Positions 9,992 to 49,566 of a DNA stretch of 64,000 nt are shown here, piece by piece; the first letter of the stretch is position 1, and each line of letters begins with the position of its first letter. The notes beneath the pieces are model-generated. The model did not search any database, was not told where the DNA came from, and saw nothing but the letters and a program-made list of their open reading frames with translations. A program made the position numbers and the translations under genes. The DNA comes from an uncultured Alphaproteobacteria bacterium. Its GTDB lineage: Bacteria > Pseudomonadota > Alphaproteobacteria > Rhizobiales > Xanthobacteraceae. The DNA lies in contig CAVXWL010000036.1 of the NCBI GenBank assembly GCA_963765365.1, positions 18,502 to 82,501 on the forward strand. The letters run 5' to 3'.

Positions 9992-10961
9992 TTACAGCGT
10001 CGTTTGCCACTCCACCGGGACGTGTTCATAGCCGGTTGCGGTCTTGATCAGATGGCCGCAGGCCGGGAACGGGAAATGATAGCCGGTGATCAGCATGCGG
10101 TCGGCCGCGGCGCGGTCGAAGATTTTCTTGCGCGTTGCCACCGCCTCCGGACCATCGACGTCGAATGCCGCCTCCCAGTCGGGATGACGGGCAAACACGG
10201 CGGGATGCTGCGCGGTGTCGCTGAGAACCAAAAGCGATTGCGCGCCGGAATGAATGGCAAAAACCGTGTGTCCCGGCGTGTGACCCGGTGCGGGCAGGGT
10301 GACGATGCCGGGCGCGACTTCCTTGCCTGGCTGGTACTGGGTCACATGCTTGGCGATATCGGCGAAGATGCGCCGCTGATTGAGGAATGTCGGTTTCATA
10401 TCCGCAGGCGCGGCGTTCAGATTGGCGTCATCCATCCAGAACGCCCATTCCGGCGCCGGTACCATGATCTCGGCATTGGGAAAGATCAGCGTGTTGTTCT
10501 TGTCCTTGATGCCGTTGATGTGGTCGGGGTGGAAATGCGAAATGACGATCTGGTCGACCGCATTCGGATCGATGCCGGCGGCAACGAGATTGTCGCGCAG
10601 CTCGCCGGCCGAGTGGTGAGATCTGGCCGCCGGTGCCGGTATCGATCAGAACAAGCTTGCTGCCGGTGTTGACGACGAGTGCGGTGAACGGCGTCGCCAG
10701 CTTGTCGTGCGGCATGAAGGCTGCGTCCAGCGCATGCTCCACGTCGGCGAACGGCGCGTTGCGAATGAATTTGTCGGTGATCGGGCGATACCAGATGCCG
10801 TCATAGAGGGCGGTGATCTCGTACGAGCCGATCTTGTAGCGATAGATGGCGGGCGCTTGTTTGCCAGCCGGAGGTGCTGTCGCCGCCGCCGGAGCCATGC
10901 CGGCGGCAAATGCCGCGGCCGCCGTGCCGGCAAGGACCGTGCGTCGCGTCAATGCCGGCAT
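9992..10961 (-). pseudogene. MBL-fold metallo-hydrolase with Tat signal, interrupted by one frameshift near 10616
   Basis: N-part MPALTRRTVLAG..LVLIDTGTGGQIS (ORF 10428-11060) continues as HSAGELRDNLVAAGIDP..HFHPDH-type region in the frame of ORF 9992-10465; removing one C at 10615-10616 joins them. Confidence 0.75.
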
Positions 10962-10986
10962 TGCGTGCTCCTTTCGCCTCCCGATA

Positions 10987-11238
10987 TCAATGGACGTCGA
11001 CGTCCGTCGTGACCGTACCGCCGATCTTGACGCAGGCGTCCGTCCCAGGGAGCTGGACAAATCCGGCGCCGAAAGCGCTACAGGCCTTAAGGCGTCCTGT
11101 CGCCGGCGATTTCGCCGACATCGGCGGTGGCGGCGGACTTGTCTTGGCGTCGGGGTTTGTCAGCGTCGGTGCGCTATCGAATGCGCTAACCGACGCCGCG
11201 ATGAGAGAGAGCGCCAAGAGCGGAAGTGCGCGATGCAT
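10987..11238 (-). CDS. 83-aa porin N-terminus-like ORF (probable gene remnant)
   Basis: Signal peptide MHRALPLLALSLIAASVSA and CSAFGAGFVQLPGTDACVKIGG resemble the start of alphaproteobacterial porins, but the ORF stops after 83 aa; its ATG overlaps the repaired stop of the upstream hydrolase (TGATG). Confidence 0.4.
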   Translation of the reverse strand: MHRALPLLALSLIAASVSAFDSAPTLTNPDAKTSPPPPPMSAKSPATGRLKACSAFGAGFVQLPGTDACVKIGGTVTTDVDVH

Positions 11239-11965
11239 CACAGCGTCTCGGCGAAAAAATCGCGCATCAGGCATGTAGGATTTGCGGCAGAGTTTTTCAT
11301 CGTAACGCTGCGCGGCGGCGTTCGCCGTCGGATCGCAGAACGAATGCACCGCGCCGCCGAACATCATGACCTGCCAATCGATCTTGGCCGCGGTCAATTC
11401 ATCCTCGAAGGCGTCCATCATCGGTTTCGGCGTAACCGGATCCGCCGAGCCGTGGATCGCCAGTACGCGGCCCTTGATGTTGCAGGGCGTGCCGGCAACG
11501 ACCGGATTCGGATTTGTGACATGGAAGACGACTACGGCCTCGAAATTCGCGGCCGCGCGCGCCTGTTCGAGGGCGTAACCGCCGCCCGCGCAAAAGCCGA
11601 TCGCCCCGATCTTTGTCGTGTCGGCGACGCCGAGCTTGCTGCGCTTCGGCCAAAAGCGTGTCGTAGGCCTTGCCGCCGCAGGCAAGCGTGAAGGGCAGGT
11701 TCTTGTGTACCGCGAGCATGCCGGCCCGCAAGTCGTCGACGGTTTTCGGTTTCGCGCCATAGCCTGAGCCGAACATATCGGCCATCAGCACGACATAGTC
11801 CTTGCCCGCGACGGCGCGCGCCTGGCCGATCGTATCGGGACAGACGCCCTTCCAATCGGGCTGCATGAAGACGATCGGGCGCTTTGCCGTCACGCTGTCG
11901 TCATAGACAATCACCCCCTCGAATTGACGGTCGTCGACTTGATACGGCACCTTCTGCTCGGCCAT
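11238..11965 (-). pseudogene. Dienelactone hydrolase family protein with two frameshifts (about 11640 and 11271)
   Basis: MAEQKVPYQ..AYDTLLAEA (ORF 11399-11965) then KLGVADTTKIGAIGFCAGGG..LAIHGSADP..GAVHSF (frame of ORF 10987-11760) then LMRDFFAETL-stop in a third frame. Confidence 0.75.
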
Positions 11966-12107
11966 CGTGCGCTCCCTGGTCGTTTCGGCGCACCGATACT
12001 AACCGAAATAAGGGGGCAATATTCCACCGATAGGAGGCGAAGGGGAGGCGGCTGAATAATTCATACTTCGGGGTCGTTGCCGAAGCCCGCGATCACATGT
12101 AGGAGCA

Positions 12108-12341
12108 GTGTTGTCACGAGGAAGAATGCCTGAAATGTCAAAGCAAGAGATGCGCGAAGAGGCTGAGCGTCTCGTCAAAGAGGCCCTGGAGCGCAAAACC
12201 GTCACCATTAAGCAGGGTAATACCCGGATCGAGACCAAGTGCGGCAAGTGCGGGGCACCAAACCGCGTCACGGCGGCTCCGGGAGAGACACGGGTCGAAT
12301 ACACCTGCAAGGAATGCGGCGCCAAGCAGCGGACCTTGTAA
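12108..12341 (+). CDS. Small zinc-ribbon protein (two CxxC pairs); true start may be an internal Met
   Basis: CGKCG and CKECG pairs; charged N-terminus. Confidence 0.5.
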   Translation: MLSRGRMPEMSKQEMREEAERLVKEALERKTVTIKQGNTRIETKCGKCGAPNRVTAAPGETRVEYTCKECGAKQRTL

Positions 12342-12711: not shown

Positions 12712-12719
12712 ACGGCCTG

Positions 12720-14093
12720 TTACGATGCCCGACCGGCTGGCACATCGTTTGGGTGGGCAACGCGCGAAACAAGCTGGTTCAGATTTCGCATCACGGACGA
12801 GAGCGAATCTCGTGAGCTCAGTACCGTCAAGGCGGACTGCAAAAACGCGGCGGTTCGTTCGTCAAGCACGGGCGCGGCGGCATCTTGAAACTTGTTGCGG
12901 ATGTCGGTTTCACGAAATGGATGCGCGGGATCGCCGGGAATATCGCGTACGCGCCGTTCGTATCGGCCGGATTTTGTGGTGACGACGATGCGCGCCGGCC
13001 AGGAGCTTGGGTATTCGGCGAGCAGAGCGTCATCGGCGGCGACTTTGATGCGCTCCATGAAGGCTTGCAGCGGCGGCAATGCTGTCTCTGCCGGCTGTCC
13101 GAGATTGAGCATGTCGTCCGGATGGAGCGCTACCATCGCCAATTGATAGGGCAGGCTGGTGAGGAACGACGCTCGGTTGCCTGACTTAATCCCGTGATCG
13201 ATCATCTTCAAATGCGGCGGCAGGACAAAGGCTGTGACGTCGGTAATGTCGGCGACCGTCACGCCGTCATCGAGAAGTTCGCGCAAGGCTTGGGTTGCCG
13301 CCATGGTCTGGCGTGCCGCGCACCATGGCTTGAAGGAGACGCGCGCGAGAGCAACTTCGCCGGCGGCTCCTTGGCTGATCATGCCGGCGTCGGGCTCGAT
13401 GCCATAAACGTCAGGAAATAGCCGCGAGTTCAGCGCATCGGTGTCTGCGGTGAATCCCGCTTGCGCCGCATACGCCGCCGCCAGTCCGCTGCGTGCGGCA
13501 TTGCCGACCAGGAGCCACCGCGCGGTGGTCGCGGCATGATGCTGGCCAACCGTGGGGGACGCCATGACGAGCGCCAGCGCGAGCGCCTGTGCGGTTTCAC
13601 TCCGATCGAGCCGCATCAGGCGCGCCGCTACCGCCGCAGTCGCAATGCCGGCGGCGAAATAGGTCGGCCAGATGCCACGGTAGAGGATGTTCGGGCCCTT
13701 CACGGCCAAGCCAAAGCGGATCATTGCCTCGTAGCCGCCGATGATCGCCGCCACGACGTCGCCGGAATCCACATCGGCCATTTCAGAAGCCAAAGTCAGC
13801 GCGGCCGGAATCACGATCGAACCCGGCGTCGTCATGGATGCAAGGTGGATGTCGTCGATCTCGCTCAAGCGGGTCAGCGCGCAGTGAAGGGCGACGCCGT
13901 CGAAGTCATCGCTGCGCGGATGCGACTGACGGGCAAAGGCAATGAGCAATTCGCCTTCGGGGGTTTTCGTGGCTGCCACCCAGGCGCCAATCGTATCGGC
14001 GACGTGCAGCCGCAACTTCTCCAGCGTGCCCGCTGCGACGTTGTCCGCTCGCAGGTCAGTGATGAAGCCGGCAAGCTCGTCGATACCATTCAT
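12720..14093 (-). CDS. MmgE/PrpD family protein (2-methylcitrate dehydratase-like fold)
   Basis: 457 aa; overall MmgE/PrpD pattern (..ALTRLSEIDDIHL..TTPGS.VIPAAL..); ATGA overlap with upstream gene. Confidence 0.8.
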   Translation of the reverse strand: MNGIDELAGFITDLRADNVAAGTLEKLRLHVADTIGAWVAATKTPEGELLIAFARQSHPRSDDFDGVALHCALTRLSEIDDIHLASMTTPGSIVIPAALTLASEMADVDSGDVVAAIIGGYEAMIRFGLAVKGPNILYRGIWPTYFAAGIATAAVAARLMRLDRSETAQALALALVMASPTVGQHHAATTARWLLVGNAARSGLAAAYAAQAGFTADTDALNSRLFPDVYGIEPDAGMISQGAAGEVALARVSFKPWCAARQTMAATQALRELLDDGVTVADITDVTAFVLPPHLKMIDHGIKSGNRASFLTSLPYQLAMVALHPDDMLNLGQPAETALPPLQAFMERIKVAADDALLAEYPSSWPARIVVTTKSGRYERRVRDIPGDPAHPFRETDIRNKFQDAAAPVLDERTAAFLQSALTVLSSRDSLSSVMRNLNQLVSRVAHPNDVPAGRAS

Positions 14094-15220
14094 GACGAGG
14101 CACCGTGCCGCCACAGCACATCAGGTCCATTCGGCGTCACCGCGACCATGGCCGACGCAACGGCGCCCGCCCCAGTGTCATCGATCAGCCCGGCGCGCAG
14201 CGAATAGACCGCTCCGGCCTCGAGCCTTGTGCCGCTATCCGGAGTCAGCGCCGGCGCTTCATCCCGTGCAAGACCGATGGAACTGCCGAGCATGGTCGCT
14301 GCAAGCGGATGAAGCTGGAATGCTCCGCGGCCTTGATCGACGATCCCCCGCAACTCCCGGCATGACTGGCCGGGTTTTGCGCTCGTCACCATGGCGTCCA
14401 GGATGCCGTCGACCTTTTCTTGCAGGGCGTCCTTTGTCGAAGCGACGCGGACAAAACCTTCGGCCCAATAACCGTCATGCCGCGCGGCGAGATAGACCTG
14501 CAGCGGGTCGCGCCGATCCGGGATCGGAAGGTCGAATGGCCGAAGCGTGCGGCCGCGATCGAGGCTGAAGAGAGAGCGTACATCCTGCGCGCCGCGTTGC
14601 AATGCGGCGTGCTCGGCCGTGAGAATACAATCGGTAACGTTCTTTCTCGCCAACACGGCATCGCGCAATGCCGTTGCCGCCGCGGCGAGTATGTCGCAGG
14701 CCTCACCCATGGCGCGCAGCTCGCGCGGCCGCTTGCGGCGCATGCCGGCCTGCAATGTCCGATCCGCCACTTCGACCTTGATATCAGAACCCAGCGCCTG
14801 GTCGAACGCGCCGCGCATGCCAAGCGGCATCGCGTCGCCGCCAATCAAAAGCAACGCACCACCGCCCTGCAATGCGCCGGCCCAGGCGGCGGCGGTTTTG
14901 GTGGCCTCGCGCAGCGGCGCCAGGTTTTCCACGAAAGTCAAAGGCTTCGCCGCCGGCACCATATTGACCCCGCCGCCGATAAGGAGTTGCGCCTTGCCAT
15001 GGCGTGGAATGAGCGCCAGCGCTGCCTCCAGCTTCGGCGTGAAATTGGTGAGGTAGGCCAGCGCCGCGTAATCGCTGCTGTTGCCATAGACGATGGCGCC
15101 ACCCGCGTTTGGATGGCTTTGCCACAGCGCGGCGAGCCGCTCCTCGAATTCCACGCGCGGCATCTGCCGCGGATCCCAGTCGGCAGGGCCGACCAAAAGA
15201 GTAGGGTGCATGGTTTGCAT
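14090..15220 (-). CDS. Creatinase/Xaa-Pro peptidase (M24)-fold protein, apparently lacking the metal ligands
   Basis: Start at MQTMHPTLL; pita-bread-fold layout by eye, but the canonical D/D/H/E/E positions look substituted. Confidence 0.6.
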   Translation of the reverse strand: MQTMHPTLLVGPADWDPRQMPRVEFEERLAALWQSHPNAGGAIVYGNSSDYAALAYLTNFTPKLEAALALIPRHGKAQLLIGGGVNMVPAAKPLTFVENLAPLREATKTAAAWAGALQGGGALLLIGGDAMPLGMRGAFDQALGSDIKVEVADRTLQAGMRRKRPRELRAMGEACDILAAAATALRDAVLARKNVTDCILTAEHAALQRGAQDVRSLFSLDRGRTLRPFDLPIPDRRDPLQVYLAARHDGYWAEGFVRVASTKDALQEKVDGILDAMVTSAKPGQSCRELRGIVDQGRGAFQLHPLAATMLGSSIGLARDEAPALTPDSGTRLEAGAVYSLRAGLIDDTGAGAVASAMVAVTPNGPDVLWRHGASS

Positions 15221-15239
15221 ATCCAGCTCTCTCGACGGG

Positions 15240-16352
15240 TCAGAAGGGTAGTTCCGCCAACGCGGCCTGTCGGCGGGTGAGAACATTCGCACCCTGCGGT
15301 GTCATGGCCACCGGCTCGCCGCAGAGCAAATAGCCGGTTTCCGGCAAATATTGGTTCGGGTGAATCATGAACAGCATATCCGGCTCAAGCACGATGGCGT
15401 TGTCGAGCGCGACGTCGCCAGGCCCGATCGAACCGAAGCCAAGGCCATGGCCGCGGCGGCGGATATGCGGCGGGTAACAGAATTCGCCGTAGCCTTCCGC
15501 CTCCAGCACCATATTGATGGCGCGGCAAATGTCGGCCATTGCGGCGCCGGGTCTCGCGGCGGCGAAGCCGGCATTCATGGCCGTGACTACGAGATCATAT
15601 TTCTCCCGCAACATCGCCGGCGCCTTGCCGAGCACGATGGTGCGGCAGATTTGAGCGAGCTGGCCGCGATAGCTCGGCGTCAATTCGCAGACGATGATGT
15701 CGCCTTTCTGCATTCGCCGGCCGTTCGACGGTGCGACGGCCCTGTTGTGCGGTCCGGCGCACAGCAGAACGAAATTATCCTCCGCCCCGAGCGATTTCGA
15801 ATGCCAGCGCAGTTCGCTCGCCAATTCGTCTTCGCTCATTCCCGGCCGCGCCAATTCCAGGAGCCGCGCAAAGCCGAGCTCGGCGATGCGGGTGGCCTCG
15901 CGCGCATAAGCAAGCTCGCTGTCGATCTTGCGCCGCGCCGGTTCGAATAAAATGTCGTCGCCAGGTTGGGCGTGCGGCAAGAGTTCGGTCAGGCGCTTGC
16001 CGATCCAATAAGGCGCGGCCGCAAGTCCGGCGATGCCGATCCCGGTACGCCCGGCAGACGAGCCCAGCGCCACTTCAAGCCCGGCGACGACATCGTCGGC
16101 CGGCACGATTCTGACGTTCGGACAGACCTCGCGCGCCCGCTCGGCATCCCATTGCGGCGTCACCACGAGGCTCACCGCGCCGGAGCGGTCGAGCAGCGCG
16201 GCGACCGGCCCGAGCGCTTTGAATCCGGTGAGCACCTTCACCGGATCGGGCTTCTCGATGAAATGTGCGCCATCGTGGACAGCGACCAGGCAGTCGAGTG
16301 CCGTCGTCAACAGACAGTTGCGAATTTCGGCGAGGCGTTGCTCGAAGGTCAT
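15240..16352 (-). CDS. M24 family (creatinase / Xaa-Pro peptidase / ectoine hydrolase-like) protein
   Basis: KGDIIVCELTPSYRGQLAQICRT, RRGHGLGFG, MIHPNQY align by eye to M24 motifs with non-canonical ligands. Confidence 0.75.
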   Translation of the reverse strand: MTFEQRLAEIRNCLLTTALDCLVAVHDGAHFIEKPDPVKVLTGFKALGPVAALLDRSGAVSLVVTPQWDAERAREVCPNVRIVPADDVVAGLEVALGSSAGRTGIGIAGLAAAPYWIGKRLTELLPHAQPGDDILFEPARRKIDSELAYAREATRIAELGFARLLELARPGMSEDELASELRWHSKSLGAEDNFVLLCAGPHNRAVAPSNGRRMQKGDIIVCELTPSYRGQLAQICRTIVLGKAPAMLREKYDLVVTAMNAGFAAARPGAAMADICRAINMVLEAEGYGEFCYPPHIRRRGHGLGFGSIGPGDVALDNAIVLEPDMLFMIHPNQYLPETGYLLCGEPVAMTPQGANVLTRRQAALAELPF

Positions 16353-16358
16353 GGTCGC

Positions 16359-17342
16359 TCAGAAGTCTTCGGAGCCGGTGGCGTCGCCGAGATCGGTGTC
16401 GGCGAACAGTTCGCCAAGCGGCGCGGCCTTGCCGATCAAGCCTTGCTGCAGGCAGTAACGCTGCACCGTCTGCAAATTCTTCACGTTGGCCGGCGTGAGC
16501 CCGTAGGACCATGGGTCTTTGCCGAGCGTTGCTTCCTGTTCCTCGACCGCGGTGCGGACGAAAGCGAGCGGCACCATGCGCGGATTGGCGAGACGACGAT
16601 AGGCGAGCTGTTTCGATTTTTCGAAGGCCTTGACCAGATTGGTGGCCACCCATGGATATTTGTCGGCGATCTCCTGCTTGACGGTGGTGACATGCATGAT
16701 GGGGAAAATGCCGGTGTCCTTGAAATAGGCGAGCTCGACATCCTTGTGGTTGGGGAACAGGCGGGCGATGCGCTTATCGCCGTCGACGAAGGGCCGCGGC
16801 AGCGTCGGCGTGATCATGGCCGGAATATCGCCATCGGCCAGCATGTCGCTCAAGGGCTTGTCTGACGTCTTCATTTCGATGCGCAAGCCTGGCGGCGGGC
16901 TGAACGCGACGTCTTCGGTGCGCTCGACGAGCCAGGTGATCGAGCGGTGATCGAGGCCGTAATGCTCTTCCAGGATGCCCCTGATCCAGATGCTGGCGGC
17001 CGGCTGGAAATTGGTGCCGCCGACCACCTTGCCGTTGAGATCTTTCGGCGTCCTGATCCCGGCCGCGGTGTTGACGAAGACGAAGCCATGGCGGAAACGG
17101 CGATGCAGAAACACCGGAATGGCGGTGAGCGGCTCGCCCTGGTCGCGGATGATGAAATAAGCGCCGACATTCTCCTCGCAGACATCGAATTCGTGCTTGC
17201 GGCCCATGCGCCAGTGGCGCTCGCGCGGCCCCATCTCCGAAAGAAAAATCAGGTCGAGGCCGTCGGCCTCGACCACGCCTTCCTTGAGCGGGCGCACGAT
17301 ATCGTAGTCGCCGCACGCCACCGTCAACCTCAATTTGCCCAT
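16359..17342 (-). CDS. Cytoplasmic binding-protein-fold protein, 4,5-dihydroxyphthalate decarboxylase (PhtD)-like
   Basis: MGKLRLTVACGDYDIVRPLKEG N-terminus without signal peptide, as in PhtD-type proteins. Confidence 0.65.
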   Translation of the reverse strand: MGKLRLTVACGDYDIVRPLKEGVVEADGLDLIFLSEMGPRERHWRMGRKHEFDVCEENVGAYFIIRDQGEPLTAIPVFLHRRFRHGFVFVNTAAGIRTPKDLNGKVVGGTNFQPAASIWIRGILEEHYGLDHRSITWLVERTEDVAFSPPPGLRIEMKTSDKPLSDMLADGDIPAMITPTLPRPFVDGDKRIARLFPNHKDVELAYFKDTGIFPIMHVTTVKQEIADKYPWVATNLVKAFEKSKQLAYRRLANPRMVPLAFVRTAVEEQEATLGKDPWSYGLTPANVKNLQTVQRYCLQQGLIGKAAPLGELFADTDLGDATGSEDF

Positions 17343-17364
17343 TTTGATGTCCCGTTCGTGTCAA

Positions 17365-18180
17365 TCAATCGCGCCATCGCGCATAATGCAACTCGGCGCG
17401 GCGCACAATCTCGTTGAGCGCGATCGCGATCGCCGCCAGCATCGAGACCAGCCCCATCAGCTTCGCCGCATCGAGATTTTGCGTGAAGACGCTGGTGAAA
17501 TAACCGATGCCCGCGGTGGAGACATAGAGCTCGGCCAGCAGCACGCCGAGCAATACGCCGCTCATGGCAAGGCGCATGCCGGTAAAGAAGCTCGGAACTG
17601 CGTGCGGGAAGATCACATGGCGGAGCAATTGCCAACGGCTGGCGCCCATGGAGCGTGCGCTGACAAACAGCACCGGCTCGATCTTCTGCACACCGGCGGC
17701 CACCGCGATCATGATGGGGAACATGCCATGGCTGACGCCAAAAGCAATTTTGGAGGCGGCGCCGATGCCGAACAACAGGATGAAGATCGGCAGGATGGTG
17801 ATTTGCGGTATGCCGTAAAGCAAGAGAACGATCGGCATAAAACTCTGGTGGGCAAAACGATTGAGCCCGACGGCAAGGCCGACGGCGGCGCCGATGAACA
17901 CCGCCAGCACGAAGGCGATCGCGATCTCATATAACGTCAACCACAAGGCCGGCGGTACGCCTGGCGTGCCGAATAATTTGCCGAGCGACATCAGGACAGT
18001 CGAAGGTGGGCTGACAAAATCGCGATCGAGGAAATAACGCGCCGCGATTTCCCAGAGCAGGAGGAGTAGCACCACCGCGCCGAGCCGTGCGACGCCGGGA
18101 CGGCGTAACAGCCAGCGCCGCAAGGCGGGGAAGGCCGGCGCTATGGCCGGCTGCGCGCCGTCGCTCCGGATCACCGCCAT
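17365..18180 (-). CDS. ABC transporter permease (NitT/TauT-type)
   Basis: Six-TM hydrophobic profile; overlaps upstream permease by 10 nt. Confidence 0.85.
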   Translation of the reverse strand: MAVIRSDGAQPAIAPAFPALRRWLLRRPGVARLGAVVLLLLLWEIAARYFLDRDFVSPPSTVLMSLGKLFGTPGVPPALWLTLYEIAIAFVLAVFIGAAVGLAVGLNRFAHQSFMPIVLLLYGIPQITILPIFILLFGIGAASKIAFGVSHGMFPIMIAVAAGVQKIEPVLFVSARSMGASRWQLLRHVIFPHAVPSFFTGMRLAMSGVLLGVLLAELYVSTAGIGYFTSVFTQNLDAAKLMGLVSMLAAIAIALNEIVRRAELHYARWRD

Positions 18181-18944
18181 CGTGCACGGCCTTCGAGCTT
18201 CGACACGGCGGTATTGAGGACGGCAACGATCGCGATGACAAAGACGATGTAGGCGAACATGCGCGCCGTATCCATGTCTTCGGCGAGGTTGACGATGCGG
18301 TGCCCCAGGCCGGCGAACGAGGCGATGGTCTCACTGGCTATCACCGACAACAGCGCGACAGTGAAACCCATGCGCAGCCCCGCCAGTACGACCGGCAGCG
18401 CGCCGGGCAGCAGCACGTGGCGGAACATCTGCAGGTCGCCTGCTCCCATCGACCGCGCCGCTGTGACCAGCCTCTGATCGGCATGGCCGAAGCCCGCGAT
18501 CGTGCTCAGCACGATAGGAAAGAAGCTGATCGTGGCGCCAAGTGCGATCTTGGATTCCGGGCCGAGGCCGAACGACATGACGTAAAGCGGCAAGAACAGG
18601 ATGATCGGCACGGCATAGATCGCCGCCAGCAACGGCTCAAAGACCCGGATCATGTAGCGCGAGCGGCTGATCAGATAACCGAGCGACACGCCAAGCGACA
18701 TCGCGATGGCGAAGGCAGCGGCGAGTTCGCCGAGCGTTACCTTAAGGTCGGGGATGAAAGCACCCGAGACGACGATGTCCACCAGTTGATGCCAGGCATC
18801 GACTGGCTTCGGCAGCAGGATACGGCTGACGCCCCACACGCTGGTTGCCAAGAACCACAACAGCAGCAGTGCCGCCAGGAATCCGACCTGCACGAGCCGG
18901 CTCAGCAGGCGGCTTCTGAGGCCGGATGGCGTGCTAGGAGTCAT
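18171..18944 (-). CDS. ABC transporter permease (NitT/TauT-type)
   Basis: Start at MTPSTPSGLRS chosen (11-nt overlap with ATPase stop); paralogous to 17365-18180. Confidence 0.8.
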   Translation of the reverse strand: MTPSTPSGLRSRLLSRLVQVGFLAALLLLWFLATSVWGVSRILLPKPVDAWHQLVDIVVSGAFIPDLKVTLGELAAAFAIAMSLGVSLGYLISRSRYMIRVFEPLLAAIYAVPIILFLPLYVMSFGLGPESKIALGATISFFPIVLSTIAGFGHADQRLVTAARSMGAGDLQMFRHVLLPGALPVVLAGLRMGFTVALLSVIASETIASFAGLGHRIVNLAEDMDTARMFAYIVFVIAIVAVLNTAVSKLEGRARWR

Positions 18945-19797: not shown

Positions 19798-19856
19798 GCG
19801 GTCTCGGCGATGTCGCGCGGCCGGGTCAAGCGGAAGGCACAGCCGGCCGTGGCGGC

Positions 19857-20831: not shown

Positions 20832-20877
20832 GGCTGTCACTTCTCCTCCGTTTGCGCGTCGTGACGTCGGCGTGTCG

Positions 20878-21864: not shown

Positions 21865-21913
21865 GAAACGATCCTGCCCCTAGATTTTTCTTGTCCGCAG
21901 CGGTTGGCCTATC

Positions 21914-30948: not shown

Positions 30949-32599
30949 TTGCGACAGCATAAGGCTAATTCATCGACTGCGGAGGCACGCGTGGCCGGAC
31001 GCGGGGCGACCGACGGATTAGATTTCTCGATTGCAACAATTCCGCCGACGCCGCGGCAGCGAAAGCTCGCCGTCGGCGTCGTGGCGGTGCTGCTCGTTGG
31101 ATTTGCGGTTGTCGCTCCGTTCGCCGCGACGCGATTGCCGCGCCTGGACAGTTTCGTTCCCACCGTCGAGGCCATCGTCCTCGTGGCCGACCTCGCGACG
31201 TCAGCACTGTTGTTTAGCCAGTACGCCAATGTGCAGTTGCGCGGCCTCCTGATTTTGGCGGACGGTTATCTTCTCTCGGCGCTGATCGTCGTTCCGCACG
31301 CGCTTTCATATCCGGGCGCATTTGCGCCCGGCGGACTATTCGTCTCGGGACTTCAGGTTACGCCGTGGCTTTATACGGCCTGGCATTTGCTGTTCTCAGT
31401 CGCGGTCCTCGTCTATGCATGTCTCAAGCGCGAGACGCAAAACGATATTTCAGGCGCTGCCACGGCGTATCCTGCGATTTATTGGAATGTCGCTGCGGTC
31501 GCGACCTTCGTCTGTGCGTTTACATGGCTCGTTACGGCGGGAGAAAAGTTCGTACCGCGGCTGATTGCCGACGAGGTCAGCTTTACGCCGATGGCGAGTT
31601 ATGTGACCGGCGTGACCGTGGCGACAACCATTTCTGCGCTTCTGGCACTTTGGGTTCGGCGCAATTCGCTCCTCGATCTTTGGCTCATGGTTGCAACCGT
31701 TGCGGCGCTCGTTGAACAGGCGATCGTCAGCTTATTTATCGGCGGCCGCTTCAGCGTGGGCTTTTACACAAGCCGTCTATTCTCGGTCGTGGTCTCGACG
31801 ATTGTCCTGGTCGCGCTGCTTTCGGAAACGATTACACTTTACGCACGGCTGGTGCGCGCCAACCGCGCGCTGCAGCGTGAGCGCGACAGCAAGCTGCTGA
31901 ATCTCGAAGTGGCCGTGGCGGCGATCGCGCACGAGGTCCGCCAGCCCTTGACCGGCATCGCCACGATGAGCGCGGCCGCACGCCGGTTCCTGTCGCGCGA
32001 ACCGCCGGATATTCCACGCGTTCAGGCGATATTGGATGAGGTCGCAGGCGCCGGCTTTCGCACCAACGAGGTGATTGAAAGTGTCCGCGCGTTGTTCCGG
32101 AGTCCTGAGCAGGATCAGCATCCGGTGGACCTCAACGGCGTGACGCTGGAAGCCCTGCAATTGCTGCGCCGGGACTTCGATGATTACGGTATCATTGTAA
32201 GCACGGAGCTGACATCCGAATTGCCGCTGATCATGGGGAATAAAGGGCAATTGCGGGAGGTCGTCCTGAAATCTGATGCAAAATGCCATCGATGCCATGG
32301 CGGGCGTTATGGATCGGCGGCGGCGCCTGCGCGTCGAGACCGAACGGCGCGAGGGAACGGTTGCAATATCCGTGGAAGATAGCGGTCCTGGGATCGATCC
32401 AAAAAGTCTGCCGGGCATCTTCGATCCGTTTGTGACCACAAAGACGAATGGCATGGGATTGGGCCTCGCCATCTCGCAGATAATCGTCGAACGACATAAC
32501 GGCCAGCTTGCGGTGGTCCCCGGCGCCGTCCGTGGTGCGCGATTTCAAGTCACGTTTCCGATCAAACCAGCAAGCGATGCGGCGGGGGCAACCGGTTAA
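30949..32599 (+). pseudogene. Membrane sensor histidine kinase, frameshifted between HisKA and HATPase (A-run 32269-32271)
   Basis: Multi-TM N-terminal half, H-box AHEVRQPLTGI, then GQLREVVL | NLMQNAIDAM..DSGPGI..GMGLGLA continues in the next frame (ORF 32276-32599); CTGAAATCTGATG would read LNLM with one A fewer. Confidence 0.8.
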
Positions 32600-34797: not shown

Positions 34798-35253
34798 TTA
34801 CTTGATCGATTTTTGCGATGACCATCCGCGGCCGGCGATGGTCAGGCCGCCGAGATCAGGCACGATCTTTCCGGTGTCGCGACCGTGCAATTCTACAACG
34901 ACGCCTTTGGTGTTCTTCAGCCTTGCCGGGTGTGCCGCGGTGGCAACGGCAGAGTTGCCTTCAGGGCCAGCATAAGGGCCCAGAATGTCGGACGGGCTTT
35001 GCAAATTTGTAGCCCTGCCGACCAGATAGCTCCGCGCGGACTTGAATTTGCTGGCGTCGATGCCACCGACATCGATGCGATATCGGCGACCATGATAGAA
35101 CAGGCTGCCGCTGCCCTCGATGTGGGCGCCCGATTTTATGAATATGATGTGGAGCTGGCCGTCCTCCGCAAACGACGGCTTCATCGCGGCGCCGAGCAAG
35201 GTAATTGCGGCGGCGGATGCGGCAATAAAATTCCTTGGTCGTGATCCAAGCAT
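34798..35253 (-). CDS. Secreted Gly-rich conserved hypothetical protein (paralog of 26259-26699)
   Basis: Internal Met MLGSRPRNFIAASAAAITLLGAAMKPSFA is a signal peptide; its ATG overlaps the repaired GNAT stop (TGATG at 35251-35255). Confidence 0.6.
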   Translation of the reverse strand: MLGSRPRNFIAASAAAITLLGAAMKPSFAEDGQLHIIFIKSGAHIEGSGSLFYHGRRYRIDVGGIDASKFKSARSYLVGRATNLQSPSDILGPYAGPEGNSAVATAAHPARLKNTKGVVVELHGRDTGKIVPDLGGLTIAGRGWSSQKSIK

Positions 35254-35823
35254 CAATTGACGCCGTGGTTCAGGGGTTTCTCGGCCGGCGCGCTTTGCGG
35301 ATGCAGGTAAAGCGTCACGTTTATCGAGTCCGAACTCACGCTTGGTGCTGATGCGAACGCCGGCGCGCTCGAATATCTTCAGCATGGGTGTGTTCGCCGG
35401 CAGCACATGCGCCAAAAGTTCATCAAGTCCAGCATTCCGCGCGATCGTGATGACATGACGCATAAGAACTGAGCCGATGCCCAAACCCTGATATCGATCG
35501 ACAACCGTAAATGCGACCTCGGCCTGCCGCGGGTTCTCGACCACGTAACGTGCACCGCCGGCGATCGTCGGTTTCCCATTGTCCTCAATGACCGCGACGA
35601 GCGCGACATGCTTGATGAAATCGATGTCGAGGAAGAATGAACGCTCTTTTTCAGTGAAATGGCGCTTAGCCGCGAAAAACCGCCGATAGAGCGACTGACT
35701 GCTCACCCGGTCGACGGCCGCAAGATAGTCATCCCGATCTTCCGGCCGCAGCGCGCGGACGGTCAGGCGACGTCCGTCGCCAAGTGCCTCTATTGCCGAA
35801 TAATATGCGGCATTCGGTTCCAT
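35253..35823 (-). pseudogene. GNAT family N-acetyltransferase with C-terminal frameshift (near 35334), giving an apparent fusion ORF
   Basis: RYQGLGIGSVLMRHV acetyl-CoA motif; after ..STKRE the next frame reads SDSINVTLYLHPQSAPAEKPLNHGVN-stop. Confidence 0.7.
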
Positions 35824-35861
35824 GTTTGGCCGAGATTGGGACAGCAGCGTTCTGGATAGCA

Positions 35862-35875
35862 TTGATCTATATCAA
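35862..35875. promoter_or_regulatory. FNR/FixK-type box TTGATCTATATCAA
   Basis: Exact TTGA-N6-TCAA between the GNAT gene (-) and 35931 (+), about 60 nt before the ATG at 35931. Confidence 0.7.
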
Positions 35876-42455: not shown

Positions 42456-42490
42456 CCTAGCCGGATCTTCAGCCAAGCAATGGGGTCACG

Positions 42491-43487
42491 ATGCCAGCGG
42501 AAAGAGAAAGCGAAATAGGTACGATCCGGGCCCACGGCCCAGGCGCCCATCCGCCGGAATCGAAATACGAAAGGCTGATCGGCCGGGCAAAAAGCGTCGT
42601 CCCAGGCAAGACCATTGTCGTGCATCCTTGCGACAAGTCGTCGCTTCGCGGTGCGATCGAGGCAGCCCAACTCGGAATCATCAGCCCGATACTTGTCGGG
42701 CCCAAATCCAAGATCGAAGCGGCCGCCCGGCAAAGCAAGCTCGATATCAGCGGGTTTGAGATCGTCGATGTGGCGCATAGCGATGCCGCGGCCGAGCGCG
42801 GCGTAGAGCTCATTCATGAAGGGCGCGGCGAGCTCTTGATGAAAGGCAGTTTGCACACCGACGAACTGATGCGGGCGGTGACCGCTTCCAAGACGGGTTT
42901 GCGAACCGAGCGGCGCATCAGCCATGTCTTCATCATGGATGTGCCGACCTATAGCGAGACCCTGTTCATCACCGATGCCGCTATCAATATCTTTCCCGAT
43001 CTCGACGCCAAGCGCGACATCATTCAGAACGCGATCGACCTCTTCACGGCGGTAGGTCTCGGTACGCCGCGGGTTGCGATCCTCTCCGCGGTCGAAACCG
43101 TTACCTCCAAAATTCCGTCGACAATCGAAGCGGCCGCGCTTTGCAAAATGGCCGATCGCAAGCAGATTACCGGCGGCGTTCTCGACGGCCCGCTTGCATT
43201 CGATAATGCGATTGATCCGGAAGCGGCAAGGATCAAGGGGATCGAGTCTCCGGTCGCCGGCCGGGCGCAAATTCTGATCGTGCCCGATCTCGAGGCCGGC
43301 AACATGCTGGCGAAAAATCTGATCTTCCTGTCGAAGGCGGAATTCAGCGGGGATCGTCCTTGGAGCGCGGGTGCCGATCGTGCTCACCTCGCGTGCGGAT
43401 TCGGTGCGAAGCCGCATGGCGTCCTGCGCCGCCGCCGTGATTTATGCCGCCGCGCGGCGGGAGACCCCAAACAAGGCCGTGGTGTAG
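42491..43487 (+). pseudogene. pta: Phosphate acetyl/butyryl-transferase (PTA_PTB family) with frameshift in G-run 43349-43352
   Basis: ..ILVGP.., LMKGSLHTDELM, DAAIN, PDLEAGNMLAKNL; after ..SKAEFSG the next frame gives IVLGARVPIVLTSRADSVRSRMASCAAAVIYA..-TAG (43485-43487). Confidence 0.8.
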
Positions 43488-43493
43488 TCGGCC

Positions 43494-44672
43494 ATGGACG
43501 CGGTTCTCGTTGTCAATGCGGGCTCTTCCAGCGTTAAATTTCAGATTTTCGAACATTCGCCGTCTGCGGCGCCGATATGTCTCGTCAAAGGCCAGATGGA
43601 CGGGATCGGCACCAAGCCGCGGCTGCGCGCCACCGACGGCAACGGGACGCCACTCGTCGATCAGACTTACGGGCCAGGCGAGATAGCCGATGGGCCGGCG
43701 GCGATCGCGGCGGTCGGTGACTGGCTGCGCAATACCCAGAAACTCGCACTCGTTGCGGTCGGCCACCGCGTCGTACATGGCGGGCCCGATTACGATCGTC
43801 CCATTCTGCTCGACTGCGATGTGCTGACGCGGCTGGAGAAGTATTGTCCGCTCGCGCCGCTCCACCAACCCAACAACCTTGCGCCTATTCGCATGCTGAT
43901 GGAACGGCGTCCTGATCTGCCTCAGGTCGCTTGTTTCGACACGGCATTTCATCGCTCGCACGGACCGCTCGCTGACAGATACGCGATCCCGGAAAAGTTT
44001 TATCGCGAAGGCGTGCGGCGCTACGGTTTCCACGGTCTATCCTACGAATATGTCGCCGGTCGGTTGCCTGAAATCGCGCCGGATATAGCCCACGGGCGTG
44101 TTGTCGTCGCCCATCTCGGCAGCGGTGCATCGATGTGCGCGCTGTTTGAGGGAAAAAGCGTCGAAAGCACCATGGGCTTTACCGCGCTGGACGGCCTGCC
44201 GATGGGAACCCGTCCCGGCCAGATCGACCCGGGCGTCCTTCTTTATCTGTTCACGGCGAAGGGCATGAGCGCGTCGGCGGTGGAAGACCTGCTCTATCGC
44301 GACTGCGGCCTCAAGGGGATGTCCGGTATCAGCAACGATTTGCGGGAACTGCTGACGAGCGAGGCCCCGGCCGCGGCATTGGCCATTGACTATTTCGTTT
44401 ATCGCATCGCGCTGAATGCCGGCATGCTGGCGGCCGCGCTGGGTGGGCTGGACGCGTTTGTCTTTACCGCGGGCATCGGCGAAAATTCGGCGACGATCCG
44501 TTCGCGCATCGCGCAGAAGCTTGCGTGGCTCGGCGCAAATTTCGACGAACAAGCGAACGAAAGCAGCATGGCGCTGATATCCGGTCCGGGCAGCAAGATA
44601 AAGATCTACATCGTGCCGACAAACGAAGAGTTGATGATCGCCCGCCATACGCTGCAGCTTCTTCGGAAATAG
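43494..44672 (+). CDS. ackA: Acetate (short-chain acyl) kinase
   Basis: [49 protein letters not shown] motifs. Confidence 0.9.
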
Positions 44673-44718: not shown

Positions 44719-44786
44719 AGCGCCTGGCGGCGCGTCGCCCGTAAAATTCTTGCAAAATCGGATAATTTGCGGAGAGGAGCGTCGCC

Positions 44787-47068
44787 ATGGAGGCACCGGC
44801 CGGCAGGCCCGAAGGTGGCACGCATGATCGGGCTTGGAGATCGTTCACTCCGGGCGATTGGCGCACGACAATCGACGTGCGGGACTTCATTACGCGCAAT
44901 GTCAAGCCTTACGCCGGCGACGAGAAATTTCTTGTAGGGCCGTCCTCCCGCACCAAGGCCGTTTGGGCCCGATTGCAGCCTTATTTCGAGCAGGAGCGGA
45001 AAAAAGGCGTGCTTGCCGTCGACGCCCACACGCCTTCGACGCTGCTCGCCCACAAAGCCGGCTATATCGATAAGGACAACGAAGTCGATCGTCGGGCTGC
45101 AGACGGACCAGCCTTTCAAGCGCGCGATATTCCCGTACGGCGGCTTGCGGATGGTGGAGGCCGGCCTGAAGGCCGCGGGCTTCGAAGCCGATCCCCAGGT
45201 CCATCGAGACCTTCACCAAATATCGCAAGACGCACAACGACGGCGTGTTCGATGCCTACACGCCCGAAATCATGAAATGCCGCAGGTCGGGCATCATCAC
45301 CGGCCTGCCGGATTCCTATGGCCGCGGGCGCATCATCGGCGACTACCGCCGCGTCGCCCTCTACGGCGTCAAGCGCCTGCTGGAGGTCAAGCAGGCCGAA
45401 CGCGCCCAGATCGACGATATGTGGCCGACCGACGAAATCATCCGTCAGCGCGAGGAACTCGCCGAGCAGATCCGCGCGCTCGGCGATCTGGTCGCCATGG
45501 CCAAGCTTTACGATTGCGATATCACGCAGCCGGCCATCGATGCCCAGGAAGCGGTGCAGTGGACTTACCTCGCTTATCTTGGCGCCGTAAAGGAAGCCAA
45601 CGGCGCGGCGATGTCGATCGGCCGCATCTCGACCTTCCTCGATATCTTCATTGAGCGCGACATGCGTGACGGCGAACTGGATGAAGAGGGCGCCCAGGAA
45701 TTGTGGGACCAGCTCGTCCAGAAACTACGCATCGTCCGGTTCCTGCGCACGCCGGACTATGATGCGCTGTTCAGCGGCGACCCGTATTGGGCGACCGAAT
45801 GCGTCGGCGGTCATCGGTCTGGACGGACGATCGCTGGTCACCAAGAGCAGCTATCGCATGCTGCACACGCTGACCAATCTCGGTCCTGCGCCAGAGCCCA
45901 ATATCACCGTATTGTGGTCGAAGCAGCTGCCGGACAATTTCAAACGCTACTGCGTCAAGGTCAGCCGCGACACGTCATCGCTGCAATACGAGAACGACGA
46001 CCTGATGCGTCCGTATTGGGGCGACGATTACGGCATCGCCTGCTGCGTTTCTGCGATGCGGCTCGGCAAGCAGATGCAATTCTTCGGCGCGCGCGTGAAT
46101 CTCGCCAAGGCGCTGCTCTACGCCATCAATGGCGGCCGCGATGAAATGTCCGGCGACCAGATTGCGCCGCCGGCGCCGCCCGTGACCGGCGAGATACTTG
46201 ACTACGATGAGGTCTTCGCGAAGTTCGATCACATGATGGAGTGGCTGGCGCGCACCTACGTGCATGCCATGAATTGCATCCACTACATGCACGACAAGTA
46301 TTTCTACGAACGCCTTGAGATGGCGCTGCACGATCGCGACGTCTTGCGCACCATGGCGTTCGGCATCGCCGGGCTGTCGGTGGTCGCCGACAGCCTTGTC
46401 GGCGATCAAATACGGCAAGGTCCACGTTATTCGCGACGCTACCGGTCTGGCCGTCGATTATCGCATCGAATACGACGGCATCAATGCCGTGCCGCAATTC
46501 GGCAACAACGACGATCGGGTGGACAGCATCGCCGCGGAACTCGTCACGCGGTTCATGGAGAAGATCCGCAAGCATCCGACCTATCGCAACGCGACCCATA
46601 CCCAGAGCGTACTGACCATCACGTCGAACGTGGTCTACGGCAAGGCGACCGGCAACACGCCGGATGGGCGCCGCAAGGGCGAGCCGTTCGGGCCCGGTGC
46701 CAACCCGATGCACGGCCGCGACAGCCATGGCTGGCTGGCGTCGTGTCTGTCAGTTGCGAAGTTGCCCTACAAGGATGCGTTGGACGGCATCAGCTACACC
46801 GTATCGGTTGCGCCGCAGAAGGCGCATCTGTCCGACACCGAACTCGTCGACGCCGCGGTCAAGGCTTTCGACATGTATTTCGGTCAAGGCGGCTTCCACA
46901 TGAATTTGAACGTCATCGACAAGGAGACGCTCGAAGACGCCATGAAGAATCCGGACAAGTACCCGCAGCTTGACGATCCGGGTATCCGGCTATGCGGTCA
47001 ACTTCATTCGCCTCACGCGCGAGCAGCAATAGGACGTGATCAACCGCACCTTTCACGGCCAAGTTTGA
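44787..47068 (+). pseudogene. pflB: Pyruvate formate-lyase (glycyl-radical enzyme), 5 frameshifts plus 1 premature TAG
   Basis: Collinear with E. coli PflB as I remember it, across frames 0,1,2,0,1,2: breaks at 45087, 45202, 45812, 46398, 46972; IACCVS active site and RVSGYAV glycyl-radical motif present; TAG at 47030-47032 where PflB has Gln (EQQ-Q-DVI). Confidence 0.9.
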
Positions 47069-47083
47069 GCCGGGAGGCAATCG

Positions 47084-47914
47084 GTGTCACAACTCGGTGA
47101 ACTGGAGCCAGGAAGCCGGTACGATCTGCATGTCGGGATTTCGCCCGACGCGCCGGATGAGAGCGCTCTGCGGGACGATGCCGAAGGCGCTTTCGGCTAT
47201 GCGCACTCCTACGAAACCTCGTCACGCTACGACGGCCCGGGATTGCGCGTCGTTCTGTTCGTCTCTGGCTGCCTCCTTCGCTGCACCTATTGTCATAACC
47301 CCGATACCTGGCATCTGAAGGACGGCACCTACGTCTCGGCGAAGGATGTCATCGACCGACTTGCGGGTTTTGCGCCGTCGCTTCGGGTCCTGGACGGCGG
47401 CCTCACCATCTCCGGCGGCGAACCGATGGTTCAGCTCGCTTTTACCCGGCGCATCCTGGCGGGCGCAAAGCAGCTTGGCCTGCATACCGCGATCGAAACC
47501 TCGGGGTTTCTGGGCGATCACGCCGACGAGCGATATCTCGCCGCGCTCGATCTCGTCTTGCTCGACATCAAGAGCTCGGATCCGGACACCTACCGTGCTG
47601 TCACCGGGCGCGAATTGGCGCCGACGTTGCGCTTCGCCGAGCGGCTGGCTGCGATCGGCAAGCCGGTGTGGGTGCGGTTCACGCTCGTTCCAGGCCTTAC
47701 CGACGACCCCGGCAACGTCGAAGGCATCGCCCGCTTTGTCGCGCCGATGAAGAATGTCGAATGGGTCGAGGTGCAGCCATTCCATCAGCTCGGCGCCTTT
47801 AAATGGAAAGCGATGCATCTCGAATACAAGGATGCGCAGACTGCACCGCCGACTGCCGAACTGAAGGATCGCGTTCTTGAACAATTCCGTGCGGCCGGTT
47901 GCCGCGTGCGCTAG
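47084..47914 (+). CDS. pflA: Pyruvate formate-lyase activating enzyme (radical SAM)
   Basis: [14 protein letters not shown] (CxxxCxxC), [14 protein letters not shown]; intact ORF. Confidence 0.85.
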
Positions 47915-47961
47915 CCGCCATTGCAGCGGCGCGAATAGAATGCAGGGCCGGAGATAAGATC

Positions 47962-49566
47962 ATGCTCGATTTTGCACGCGGTATCATCGGTTCGCAACCG
48001 ATCCTGACCGCCTTTCTCGCCATCGGATTGGGCTATCTCGTCGGCCAGATCAGCATCGGCGGATTTTCGCTCGGTGTAGGCGCGGTGCTGTTTGTTGGTC
48101 TTGCGCTTGGCGCATTCGCGCCGAAGGCGCAGATCGTCGGCCCCGATTGGACTGATCGGGCTGATCATGTTCCTCTACGGCGTCGGCATTCTCTATGGCC
48201 GGCAATTCTTCGAGGGTATGACGGGCGTCGAAGGGCGAAAATACAATCTGCTTGCTCTCGTTGCCGTTGCCGTCGGCCTCGCTGTCGCCCTTGGGCTCGG
48301 TCACGTCTTCGGCGTAAAAATCGGTCACACGCTTGGCATTTTTGCCGGTTCGATGACCAGCACCGCCACGCTGCAGGCGGCGCTCGACACGATGAAAAAC
48401 ACCGAGCCGTCGATCGGCTATTCGGTTGCCTATCCCTTTGGCGTCATCGGCCCGATTCTGTGCATGTATTTCATGACGCGCATGGTCCAGCCGAAATTTC
48501 CGCCGAAGGCGCCGCAAATGCATATGGGCGAGATCGCGCTCGGTCCAAATTTTGGTGGCCAGCCGCTCCATGAACTCAGCAAGGACCTTCCGAGCGGCAT
48601 GCAAGTGACGATGGTACGCAAAGGCGGCCAAAACTACCTGCCTTCCGCCGCTTTGCTGCTTGAAGCCGGGGACGCTCTTTTGGTCGTCGCCGAACGGCAG
48701 GACGACATTGCCGCGACCGCGGCGCGTTTGGGCACGCTCGAGCCGGGACGCATCGTCAAGGACCGCGCGGATCTCGACTACATCCGCGTCTTTGTCGGCA
48801 AGGCGAATGTTGTCGGCGTGCCGCTGGCGAAGTTGTCTTTGCCCAGCGGACTTTCCGGTACAGTTGCTTCACGTCAGGCGGTACGACGTCGACCTGGTTC
48901 CTTCGCCGGATTTGACGCTGGAGTTCGGCGATCGGGTCGGCGTTCTGATGCCCCCGGATCGCAAGGAAGAAATCCGGCGCTACTTCGGCGATACCGTGAA
49001 ATCGGCAGCCGAATTCAGCTATGTCTCGCTGGGCGTCGGAATGGTGCTCGGGCGTTTTGATCGGTCTCGTTCCAATTCCGATCCCTGGCGTCGGCACCGT
49101 GACGCTCGGTATCGGCGGCGGTCCGCTGATCGTCGCGCTGATTGCCGGCAAACTCCGCCGAACCGGCCCGCTGCTTTGGGTCATGCCGCTGCCAGCGAAT
49201 ATCGTGCTCCGCAACTTTGGCCTCGCGCTGTTCCTGGCTACGGTCGGGGTCAATGCCGGCCAGCCATTTTTGAAGACGATAACGGAAACCGGATTCACGC
49301 TGTTCTGGATCGGCGTCGCAGTTCTCTTGGCTACGGTCCTGATTGTACTGCTGGTCGGATATTATGTCTTGAAAATCGCCTACGACGACCTGATGGGGAT
49401 CGCTGCCGGCGCCACCGGAAACCCGGCGATCCTGATCTACGGCACGCGCATGGCGCCGACCGAACGTCCCGATGTCGGCTACGCCATGATCTTTCCATCG
49501 ATGACCATCGTTAAAGTGATCGCAGTGCAGATCGTCGGTTTGATGTTTGGGGTCGGCATAAGCTGA
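47962..49566 (+). pseudogene. AAE-family (aspartate:alanine exchanger / YidE-YbjL-like) transporter with 3 frameshifts
   Basis: MLDFARGIIGSQPILTAFLAIGLGYLVGQI.. then frames 1,2,0,1; breaks at C-run 48141-48144, about 48849, and G-run 49050-49052; central TrkA-C-like segment, duplicated membrane halves. Confidence 0.8.

Follow-up and report, generated by a model that had tools for sequence, protein, structure and literature searches.

Frame breaks around an alphaproteobacterial pyruvate formate-lyase locus are most probably insertion errors of a long-read assembly

Results

Fourteen +1 frame breaks in seven genes

A 64,000-nucleotide stretch of an alphaproteobacterial MAG (the window) carries 14 single-base frame breaks which, judged from the assembled sequence and its comparison with other genomes, are most probably false one-base insertions in a long-read-only MAG consensus and not mutations. 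The fermentation genes that they interrupt should accordingly be treated as intact rather than decaying. An earlier, sequence-only reading had listed the breaks and left two explanations standing, poor assembly quality in this region or a fermentative module in genuine decay, and the artefact option is supported here by controls across assembly types and by breaks in essential genes.

The breaks were examined by homology, using tblastn with intact proteins of relatives, and with a codon-usage frame-switch scan that recovered 10 of the 14 known window breaks and returned an occasional false positive. All 14 are present, at or a few bases from the positions originally listed, and every one is a net +1 shift caused by a single extra base, with no deletions and no larger events. 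Seven genes carry them all (Table 1), so the earlier statement that they are confined to seven genes holds inside the window, but the same type of break occurs throughout the genome beyond it. The regions that had been described as undisturbed (before 10 kb, 12.7-25.8 kb and after 50 kb) gave no further +1 break in the scan. A +1/-1 pair that the scan placed at 36872/37157, in a DUF3300 gene, was rejected as a false positive, as the relatives have a single frame there, and a frame switch at 23676-23753 is the ordinary boundary between overlapping hydantoinase A and B genes. The comparison of sister loci that had been proposed as a check showed the orthologues of relatives to be in one frame at the loci compared; none of 20 relatives provided a DNA-level match to the pfl region, for which protein-level relatives were used instead.

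Table 1. Genes of the window that carry +1 frame breaks, with the two intact genes of the same fermentation region
Gene	Position	Strand	Status
MBL-fold hydrolase	9995..10973	-	one +1 break, 10612-10616, patch type
Dienelactone-hydrolase-like gene (DLH)	11241..11998	-	two +1 breaks, 11636-11640 and 11254-11271, patch type
MASE4 histidine kinase	30949..32599	+	one +1 break, 32268-32273
GNAT acetyltransferase	35253..35862	-	one +1 break, 35332-35337
pta (phosphate acetyl/butyryl transferase)	42476..43460	+	one +1 break within 43335-43351
ackA (acetate kinase)	43494..44672	+	intact; Pfam Acetate_kinase 5.8e-105, relatives in single frame
pflB (pyruvate formate-lyase)	44784..47068	+	five +1 breaks and a premature TAG, patch type
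pflA (PFL activase)	47084..47914	+	intact; Pfam Radical_SAM and Fer4_12, relatives single-frame at 80% identity
Asp-Al_Ex (AAE/YidE-type) transporter	47941..49566	+	three +1 breaks, patch type

Intact 326-330 aa proteins of relatives match the MBL-fold hydrolase in frame -3 and then frame -1 with 83-94% identity, with the tblastn junction at 10612-10614 and the scan break at 10618. For DLH, proteins of 246-253 aa match frames -1, -2 and -3 in succession (junctions 11636-11637 and 11254-11270), and the scan recovered one break, at 11636. In the histidine kinase, successive frames hold HisKA and then HATPase_c, and reading through at 32269 yields an unbroken N-box (...QLREVVL/NLMQNAIDA...); the break, placed at 32271 by the scan, lies in a GAAATC that equals GAATC, a GANTC site, plus one A. 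Similarly, the GNAT break lies in a GAACTC that equals the GANTC site GACTC plus one A. The alignment of this gene to relatives stops at 35335 (scan break 35319), a read-through in the next frame reaches a TGA overlapping an ATG at 35251-35255, and the break joins the gene to a downstream ORF for a secreted protein.

In the pfl region, pta has a Pfam PTA_PTB match, the alignment to relatives passes from frame 2 to frame 3, and the interval of its break holds GAATTC at 43340-43345, which is a GANTC site plus one base. The five breaks and the premature TAG reported for pflB were both seen. Intact relatives align to this gene through frames 3, 1, 2, 3, 1 and 2 at 67-91% identity, with tblastn junctions at 45073-45088, 45194-45204, 45811-45813, 46393-46397 and 46970-46971 (breaks at about 45087, 45202, 45812, 46397 and 46971), and the TAG is at 47030-47032. 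A GC3 frame plot likewise gave five +1 shifts, with GC3 of 0.8-0.9 kept in the shifting frame. Identity is 67% over the first ~100 residues and 84-91% in the segments, which are thus more conserved than the intact ackA (71%) and pflA (80%). The AAE transporter is broken at 48143-48144, 48843-48850 and 49051-49052; its relatives align through frames 1, 2, 3 and 1, and its Pfam Asp-Al_Ex and TrkA_C pieces are spread over three frames.

Rates of +1 breaks across assembly types

The assembly (38 contigs, 4.78 Mb, 96% completeness) gave 326 +1 candidates in the scan, or 6.8 per 100 kb, and 147 -1 candidates, or 3.1 per 100 kb. The contig that holds the window, with 12.2 +1 candidates per 100 kb, is unremarkable. 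When the same counts were made in other genomes, Bradyrhizobium and Nitrobacter isolates had one +1 and 31 -1 candidates in 668 kb (0.1 +1 per 100 kb) and short-read MAGs had one and nine in 244 kb (0.4 per 100 kb), whereas Nanopore MAGs of the Microflora Danica (MFD) set had 37 and seven in 621 kb (6.0 per 100 kb). The division recurs within the genus of the window, where few-contig genomes have 18 +1 candidates in 360 kb (5.0 per 100 kb) and many-contig genomes have none in 179 kb. Apart from the one candidate in each of the isolate and short-read sets, +1 breaks were therefore restricted to few-contig and Nanopore MAGs: their number follows assembly type, while the -1 candidates represent the background of the method. 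The +1 rate also varies strongly between MAGs of the same MFD set.

The nearest ackA loci are those of MFD Nanopore MAGs, and a related MFD MAG set was produced by Flye (--meta --nano-hq) plus a single Medaka 1.8.0 round, with no short-read polishing (PMC12313526). The error signature, the contiguity and these nearest relatives point to a Nanopore origin for the present genome, which is most probably an assembly of the Flye/Medaka kind.

Sequence context of the breaks

A GAANTC or GANTTC hexamer occurs within 20 nt of 104 of the 326 +1 sites, compared with 8% of random sites and 13 of the 147 -1 sites, and the enrichment peaks 0-10 nt from the junction (-10 to 0 nt). The enrichment extends to every variant of N (GAACTC, z=14.7; GAATTC, 8.9; GAAGTC, 5.3; GAAATC, 4.9). 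The hexamer is found at 53% of isolated sites versus 11% of tightly clustered ones (Fisher p=8e-10), and about a quarter of the +1 breaks of the genome are at GANTC sites read as GAANTC or GANTTC. In the window this applies to three or four of the 14: the breaks at 32270 and 35334 are of the GANTC type, that at 43350 probably is, and that at 45087, which is inside the pfl patch and has a hexamer at 45081-45086, possibly is. Further error motifs suggested by eye (GATC/ATCG, CTTG and GTCGGC) were discarded, as no k-mer was prominent once the GANTC-type sites had been removed; the best residual 6-mers, at z of about 4-4.5, were borderline given some 2,000 tests.

The breaks had also been ascribed to homopolymer over-calling. 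Many of them do sit in homopolymers, but this is uninformative, with runs of four or more commoner at random positions: such runs are near 9% of +1 junctions versus 15% of random positions, which speaks against over-calling. Run length pointed the same way: within 12 nt, the longest run averages 2.63 at +1 junctions and 2.75 at random positions.

A gene for the GANTC methyltransferase CcrM was not found in this assembly with Pfam PF01555, motif regular expressions or a Caulobacter-type CcrM as tblastn query, searches that gave only two beta-class methyltransferases, both unrelated. Of 20 relatives, 19 carry the gene, among them 11 of the 12 that belong to the same genus.

Clustering and breaks in essential genes

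A uniform error model had been judged a poor description of the breaks, and gap and variance statistics for the whole genome bear this out: the variance-to-mean ratio of +1 breaks is 2.2-2.9, 100 gaps are shorter than 1 kb where 19 would be expected, and breaks are twice as dense within 20 kb of a contig end. Of the 28 clusters, the pfl patch comes roughly seventh in rank. Clustering is thus a property of the errors across the genome, and there is nothing special about the genes of the window. Other patches break BamA (four POTRA domains and Omp85), MurJ, UDP-glucose dehydrogenase (Ugd), a PyrD-type dihydroorotate dehydrogenase and GshB. BamA and MurJ contain several +1 breaks each, are present only once in the assembly and are covered by patches as dense as or denser than that at pfl; since both are single-copy and essential, they cannot be pseudogenes. 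The proposed link between the breaks and a low-oxygen regulon is not supported, as breaks occur at comparable density genome-wide, single-copy essential genes included.

Collapsed repeats or duplicates were rejected as the source of the patches at pfl, at MBL/DLH, on contigs C13, C38 and C16 and at the end of C20. Positions 1-14,998 of C20 are a fold-back copy, the sole patch that fits such a reading.

Discussion

We propose that two modes of insertion error would together produce this pattern. In a systematic mode, one A or T would be added in the CcrM site GANTC to give GAANTC or GANTTC, so that isolated breaks appear anywhere in the genome, among them those at 32270 and 35334, probably 43350 and maybe 45087; GANTC would accordingly be methylated in this organism. 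In a patch mode, several generic single-base insertions would fall within a few kb, probably where reads gave poor support because depth was low, strains were mixed or a contig end was near, as may be the case in the window for pflB with the transporter and for MBL with DLH; the patches would then reflect weak read support. Both modes would insert and almost never delete, which would put all 14 breaks in one direction.

The lesions resemble bacterial pseudogenes and reductive decay in that several of them, all generating stops, fall in neighbouring, related, dispensable genes. True decay of the ackA-pta-pflBA-transporter module and a few dispensable genes by real frameshifts would fit a pfl locus that is patchy in the genus (found in seven of 60 other genomes), which makes it dispensable and its loss plausible, and would also fit the substitution-type TAG in pflB, the eight breaks within 4 kb and the broken pflB of another genus member (G021). 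We nevertheless consider it quite improbable. Decay would not be expected to leave a single type of lesion that recurs about 326 times in the genome and is found, within the clade, in long-read assemblies only, nor to strike BamA and MurJ equally or more densely; pflA and ackA of the same module are intact, and the broken pflB is better conserved than these neighbours and has full codon bias, with no sign of relaxed constraint. One lesion type, retained constraint, equally affected essential genes and one assembly technology set the pattern apart from reductive decay. It is decidedly improbable that a minority of the pfl lesions, such as the TAG or some of the pflB breaks, are real and have errors layered on top, in which case a soil alphaproteobacterium would have been caught early in the loss of pyruvate formate-lyase fermentation.

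The uniform direction and the strong association with GAANTC/GANTTC could also be produced by real, direction-biased mutation, for instance in a mutator lineage or through +1 slippage where CcrM methylates GANTC. This is very unlikely: GANTC methylation is to be expected just as much in clade isolates and short-read MAGs, which nevertheless have the single candidates given above, many-contig genomes of the same genus have none, some 300 or more frameshifts that include BamA and MurJ would be untenable for a free-living cell, and errors linked to GANTC have been documented as an artefact of Nanopore data (PMC12710330, PMC12392509). Recoding, whether by programmed +1 ribosomal frameshifting or by transcriptional slippage, would supply the identical +1 correction needed at all breaks, but its probability is minute, as no slippery or stimulatory motif is common to the 14 sites, the orthologues of relatives are single-frame with the junction sequence conserved in none at the loci compared, and five events within one gene would be unprecedented.

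Insertion error, as the preferred reading, is an artefact already known and implies no new biology, but it has practical consequences. Annotation pipelines will label pflB, pta, the AAE transporter and the histidine kinase as pseudogenes, along with hundreds of further genes, and a metabolic reconstruction would falsely deny the organism mixed-acid fermentation. The two error regimes, isolated GANTC breaks and insertion-only patches, can be told apart, and comparing the number of +1 breaks with that of -1 breaks offers a simple diagnostic, the +1 class being nearly absent from isolate and short-read controls. Together, these features could serve to flag and mask such errors in catalogues of alphaproteobacterial long-read MAGs.

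GANTC errors in Nanopore assemblies have been described in agrobacteria (PMC12710330) and Brucella (PMC12392509). Like methylation-motif errors, the present breaks are concentrated at GANTC independently of local context and recur genome-wide, and their class is present in Nanopore MAGs but, apart from one candidate per control set, absent from isolate and short-read assemblies of the clade. Unlike the substitutions near methylated bases stressed in those papers, they are insertions duplicating an A or T, in a scan that sees frame breaks only, and no ccrM was found in this bin. They also differ from classic Nanopore indels, which are deletions in long homopolymers, in being nearly all insertions with long homopolymers unenriched. 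Their clustering, higher density at contig ends and MAG-dependent rate are shared with the residual indels of low-coverage Nanopore-only MAGs, and the authors of the MFD catalogue tied lower coverage to lower coding density (PMC12313526).

Each break in the window is one extra base

The sequence-only reading had reported 14 frame breaks in seven genes, each consisting of a single extra base ('+1', repaired by deleting one base). All 14 were borne out by relatives' proteins (tblastn), domain content and read-through translation. Junctions were narrowed by tblastn with proteins from the 20-kb neighbourhoods of PflB-bearing relatives, and closer relatives were used for the metallo-beta-lactamase (MBL) and dienelactone hydrolase (DLH) junctions in the 10-12 kb region. 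A GC3 frame plot of 44.6-49.7 kb showed five one-base forward steps of the high-GC3 codon position inside pflB, to which the intact PflB of each of three genus members (open frames of 765-785 aa) aligns at 67-91% identity per segment. In the histidine kinase (HK), HisKA and HATPase_c occupy successive frames and the N-box becomes contiguous on read-through at base 32269. For the GNAT gene, the relatives' alignment ends at 35335, and the next frame reaches a TGA overlapping an ATG 26 codons further on.

Break junctions, doubled-base hexamers and methyltransferase genes (window coordinates unless a contig is given)
Feature	Position	Frames	Basis or remark
MBL hydrolase	10612-10614	-3>-1	closer relatives' proteins
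Dienelactone hydrolase	11636-11637, 11254-11270	-1>-2>-3	closer relatives' proteins
pta	43335-43351	2>3	tblastn
pflB	45073-45088, 45194-45204, 45811-45813, 46393-46397, 46970-46971	3>1>2>3>1>2	tblastn
Asp-Al_Ex transporter	48143-48144, 48843-48850, 49051-49052	1>2>3>1	tblastn
GAAATC	32268-32273		HK break
GAACTC	35332-35337		GNAT break
GAATTC	43340-43345		inside permitted interval of pta break
GAAGTC	45081-45086		pflB; relatives better fitted by removal of another base
Beta-class methyltransferase	C31:9410-10522		601-aa ORF adjoining a transposase-like gene
Beta-class methyltransferase	C15:278743-279585		riddled with stops

The '+1' class is widespread in this genome and in long-read assemblies

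The genome comprises 4.78 Mb in 38 contigs (62.6% G+C; CheckM-type completeness 96%, contamination 2%). It was scanned with a seven-state Viterbi model (non-coding plus six frames) using a codon-usage log-odds table trained on 1,192 of its long ORFs, and same-strand switches were kept if the old frame stayed open for more than 30 nt beyond the switch. The scan recovered 10 of the 14 known breaks, plus one false-positive +1/-1 pair at 36872-37157 in a DUF3300 gene, a compositionally odd stretch that relatives read in one frame. The whole genome yielded 326 '+1' and 147 '-1' candidates; the breaks are thus confined to seven genes inside the window, as had been stated, but not genome-wide. The contig holding the window carries 12.2 '+1' candidates per 100 kb, several contigs carry more, and 6.7% of sliding 64-kb windows hold at least as many as this one.

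Control scans covered loci around ackA in other genomes and stretches from the window's own genus. Isolates of Bradyrhizobium/Nitrobacter (668 kb) gave one '+1' and 31 '-1' candidates and short-read MAGs (244 kb) one and nine, whereas Microflora Danica Nanopore MAGs (621 kb) gave 37 and seven. Within the genus, few-contig genomes (360 kb) gave 18 and six, with the '+1' candidates spread very unevenly from genome to genome, and many-contig genomes (179 kb) none and one. Based on these counts, the '-1' class is the background of the method, probably reflecting overlapping neighbour genes, and the '+1' class is tied to long-read assemblies, which explains the 14 of 14 direction bias without recourse to biology. 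A related MAG catalogue was produced by Flye --meta --nano-hq assembly followed by one Medaka 1.8.0 round, and its authors noted traces of Nanopore error in MAGs of low coverage (PMC12313526). We infer that the present genome is likewise a Nanopore-only MAG. A 20-kb stretch of a nine-contig genus member (G011:C1:270000-289999) contains nine '+1' breaks; the 74% completeness estimated for that genome may have been lowered by frameshift errors.

Isolated breaks often coincide with doubled GANTC sites

The sequence-only reading had proposed homopolymer over-calling, but '+1' junctions show no enrichment of long homopolymers, so this is not the cause. Instead, k-mer enrichment within 20 nt of '+1' junctions identified GAACTC/GAGTTC (z 14.7), GAATTC (z 8.9), GAAGTC/GACTTC (z 5.3) and GAAATC/GATTTC (z 4.9), which together make up GAANTC/GANTTC. 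GANTC is the CcrM methylation site of Alphaproteobacteria, and GAANTC is GANTC with its A doubled (T on the other strand). The doubled form accompanies 104 of 326 '+1' sites, compared with 8% of random sites and 13 of 147 '-1' sites, and peaks 0-10 nt from the junction. No second motif emerged from k-mer enrichment among the '+1' sites once GANTC-type sites were removed.

GANTC is presumably methylated in this organism. No ccrM orthologue was found in the assembly, although 19 of 20 relatives carry the gene, among them 11 of 12 from the same genus; its absence is most simply, and probably, due to bin incompleteness. Nanopore assembly errors at GANTC have been documented in agrobacteria (PMC12710330) and Brucella (PMC12392509). 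The genome encodes only two other beta-class N6/N4 methyltransferases (table). In a 10-contig relative, ccrM is split over two overlapping frames (G003:C5:140529-141264), likely another long-read frameshift error.

Isolated and clustered breaks separate cleanly. The doubled motif is found at 55 of 104 '+1' sites whose nearest neighbour is at least 5 kb away and at 11 of 101 with a neighbour within 500 nt, close to the 8% background (Fisher p=8e-10 for neighbours within 1.5 kb versus none within 5 kb). The window behaves likewise: the three scattered breaks (HK, GNAT and pta) are GANTC-type, in pta probably so, and the eight-break pflB/transporter and three-break MBL/DLH patches are generic.

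Patches of breaks also disrupt essential genes

Genome-wide, '+1' sites are over-dispersed (variance/mean 2.2-2.9), with 100 neighbour gaps below 1 kb against 19 expected and about twofold density in the outermost 20 kb of contigs. They form 28 clusters of at least three sites, among which the pfl patch ranks about seventh. Other patches fall in genes for BamA (four POTRA domains plus Omp85), a molybdopterin oxidoreductase, MurJ, UDP-glucose dehydrogenase, dihydroorotate dehydrogenase and its Fe-S subunit, and glutathione synthetase, and in their read-through translations Pfam domains span the frame switches unbroken. The assembly holds no second copy of BamA or MurJ, and breaking these seven or eight times is impossible for a free-living bacterium. 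Patches might be duplicates, but this holds for C20:1-14998 only, an inverted copy of the adjoining 15 kb (C20:12497-27511; 87% identity, 239 gaps) outside the window. It contains 13 '+1' breaks, including a broken gshB whose inner copy is intact, and resembles a fold-back (hairpin) artefact of assembly at the end of the contig. The patches themselves would reflect low depth or strain mixture.

Decay of the fermentative module is unlikely

Genuine decay of the ackA-pta-pflBA-transporter module could draw on its patchy, accessory distribution, since the PFL-like family occurs in seven of 60 other genus genomes, and on a premature TAG in pflB (47030-47032), a substitution without an indel that replaces Gln in ...LTREQQ(Q)DVINRTF..., 11 codons ahead of the natural TGA; the TAG may be a further consensus error or a real variant. 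However, decay is an unlikely explanation, as every lesion is a one-base insertion, codon bias persists at full strength throughout the shifted pflB segments, and most of broken pflB is 84-91% identical to intact relatives (67% in the first ~100 residues), above intact ackA (71%) and pflA (80%). The proposed link to a low-oxygen regulon also vanishes against the genome-wide break list. Judged from the sequence itself, relatives and control genomes, the 14 breaks are best read as a known sequencing and assembly artefact, not biology, and the seven affected genes should be treated as intact.

Another genus member also has a broken pflB, in two pieces with two in-frame TGA codons (G021:C7:23380-25123). 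The minus-strand '11-gene operon' (12720-25776), which is intact, has no relation to low-oxygen metabolism: it is a cluster for N-heterocycle or amide catabolism, with genes for hydantoinase/oxoprolinase A and B, two M24 (creatinase-like) peptidases, an MmgE/PrpD-family protein and an NMT1-type ABC transporter.
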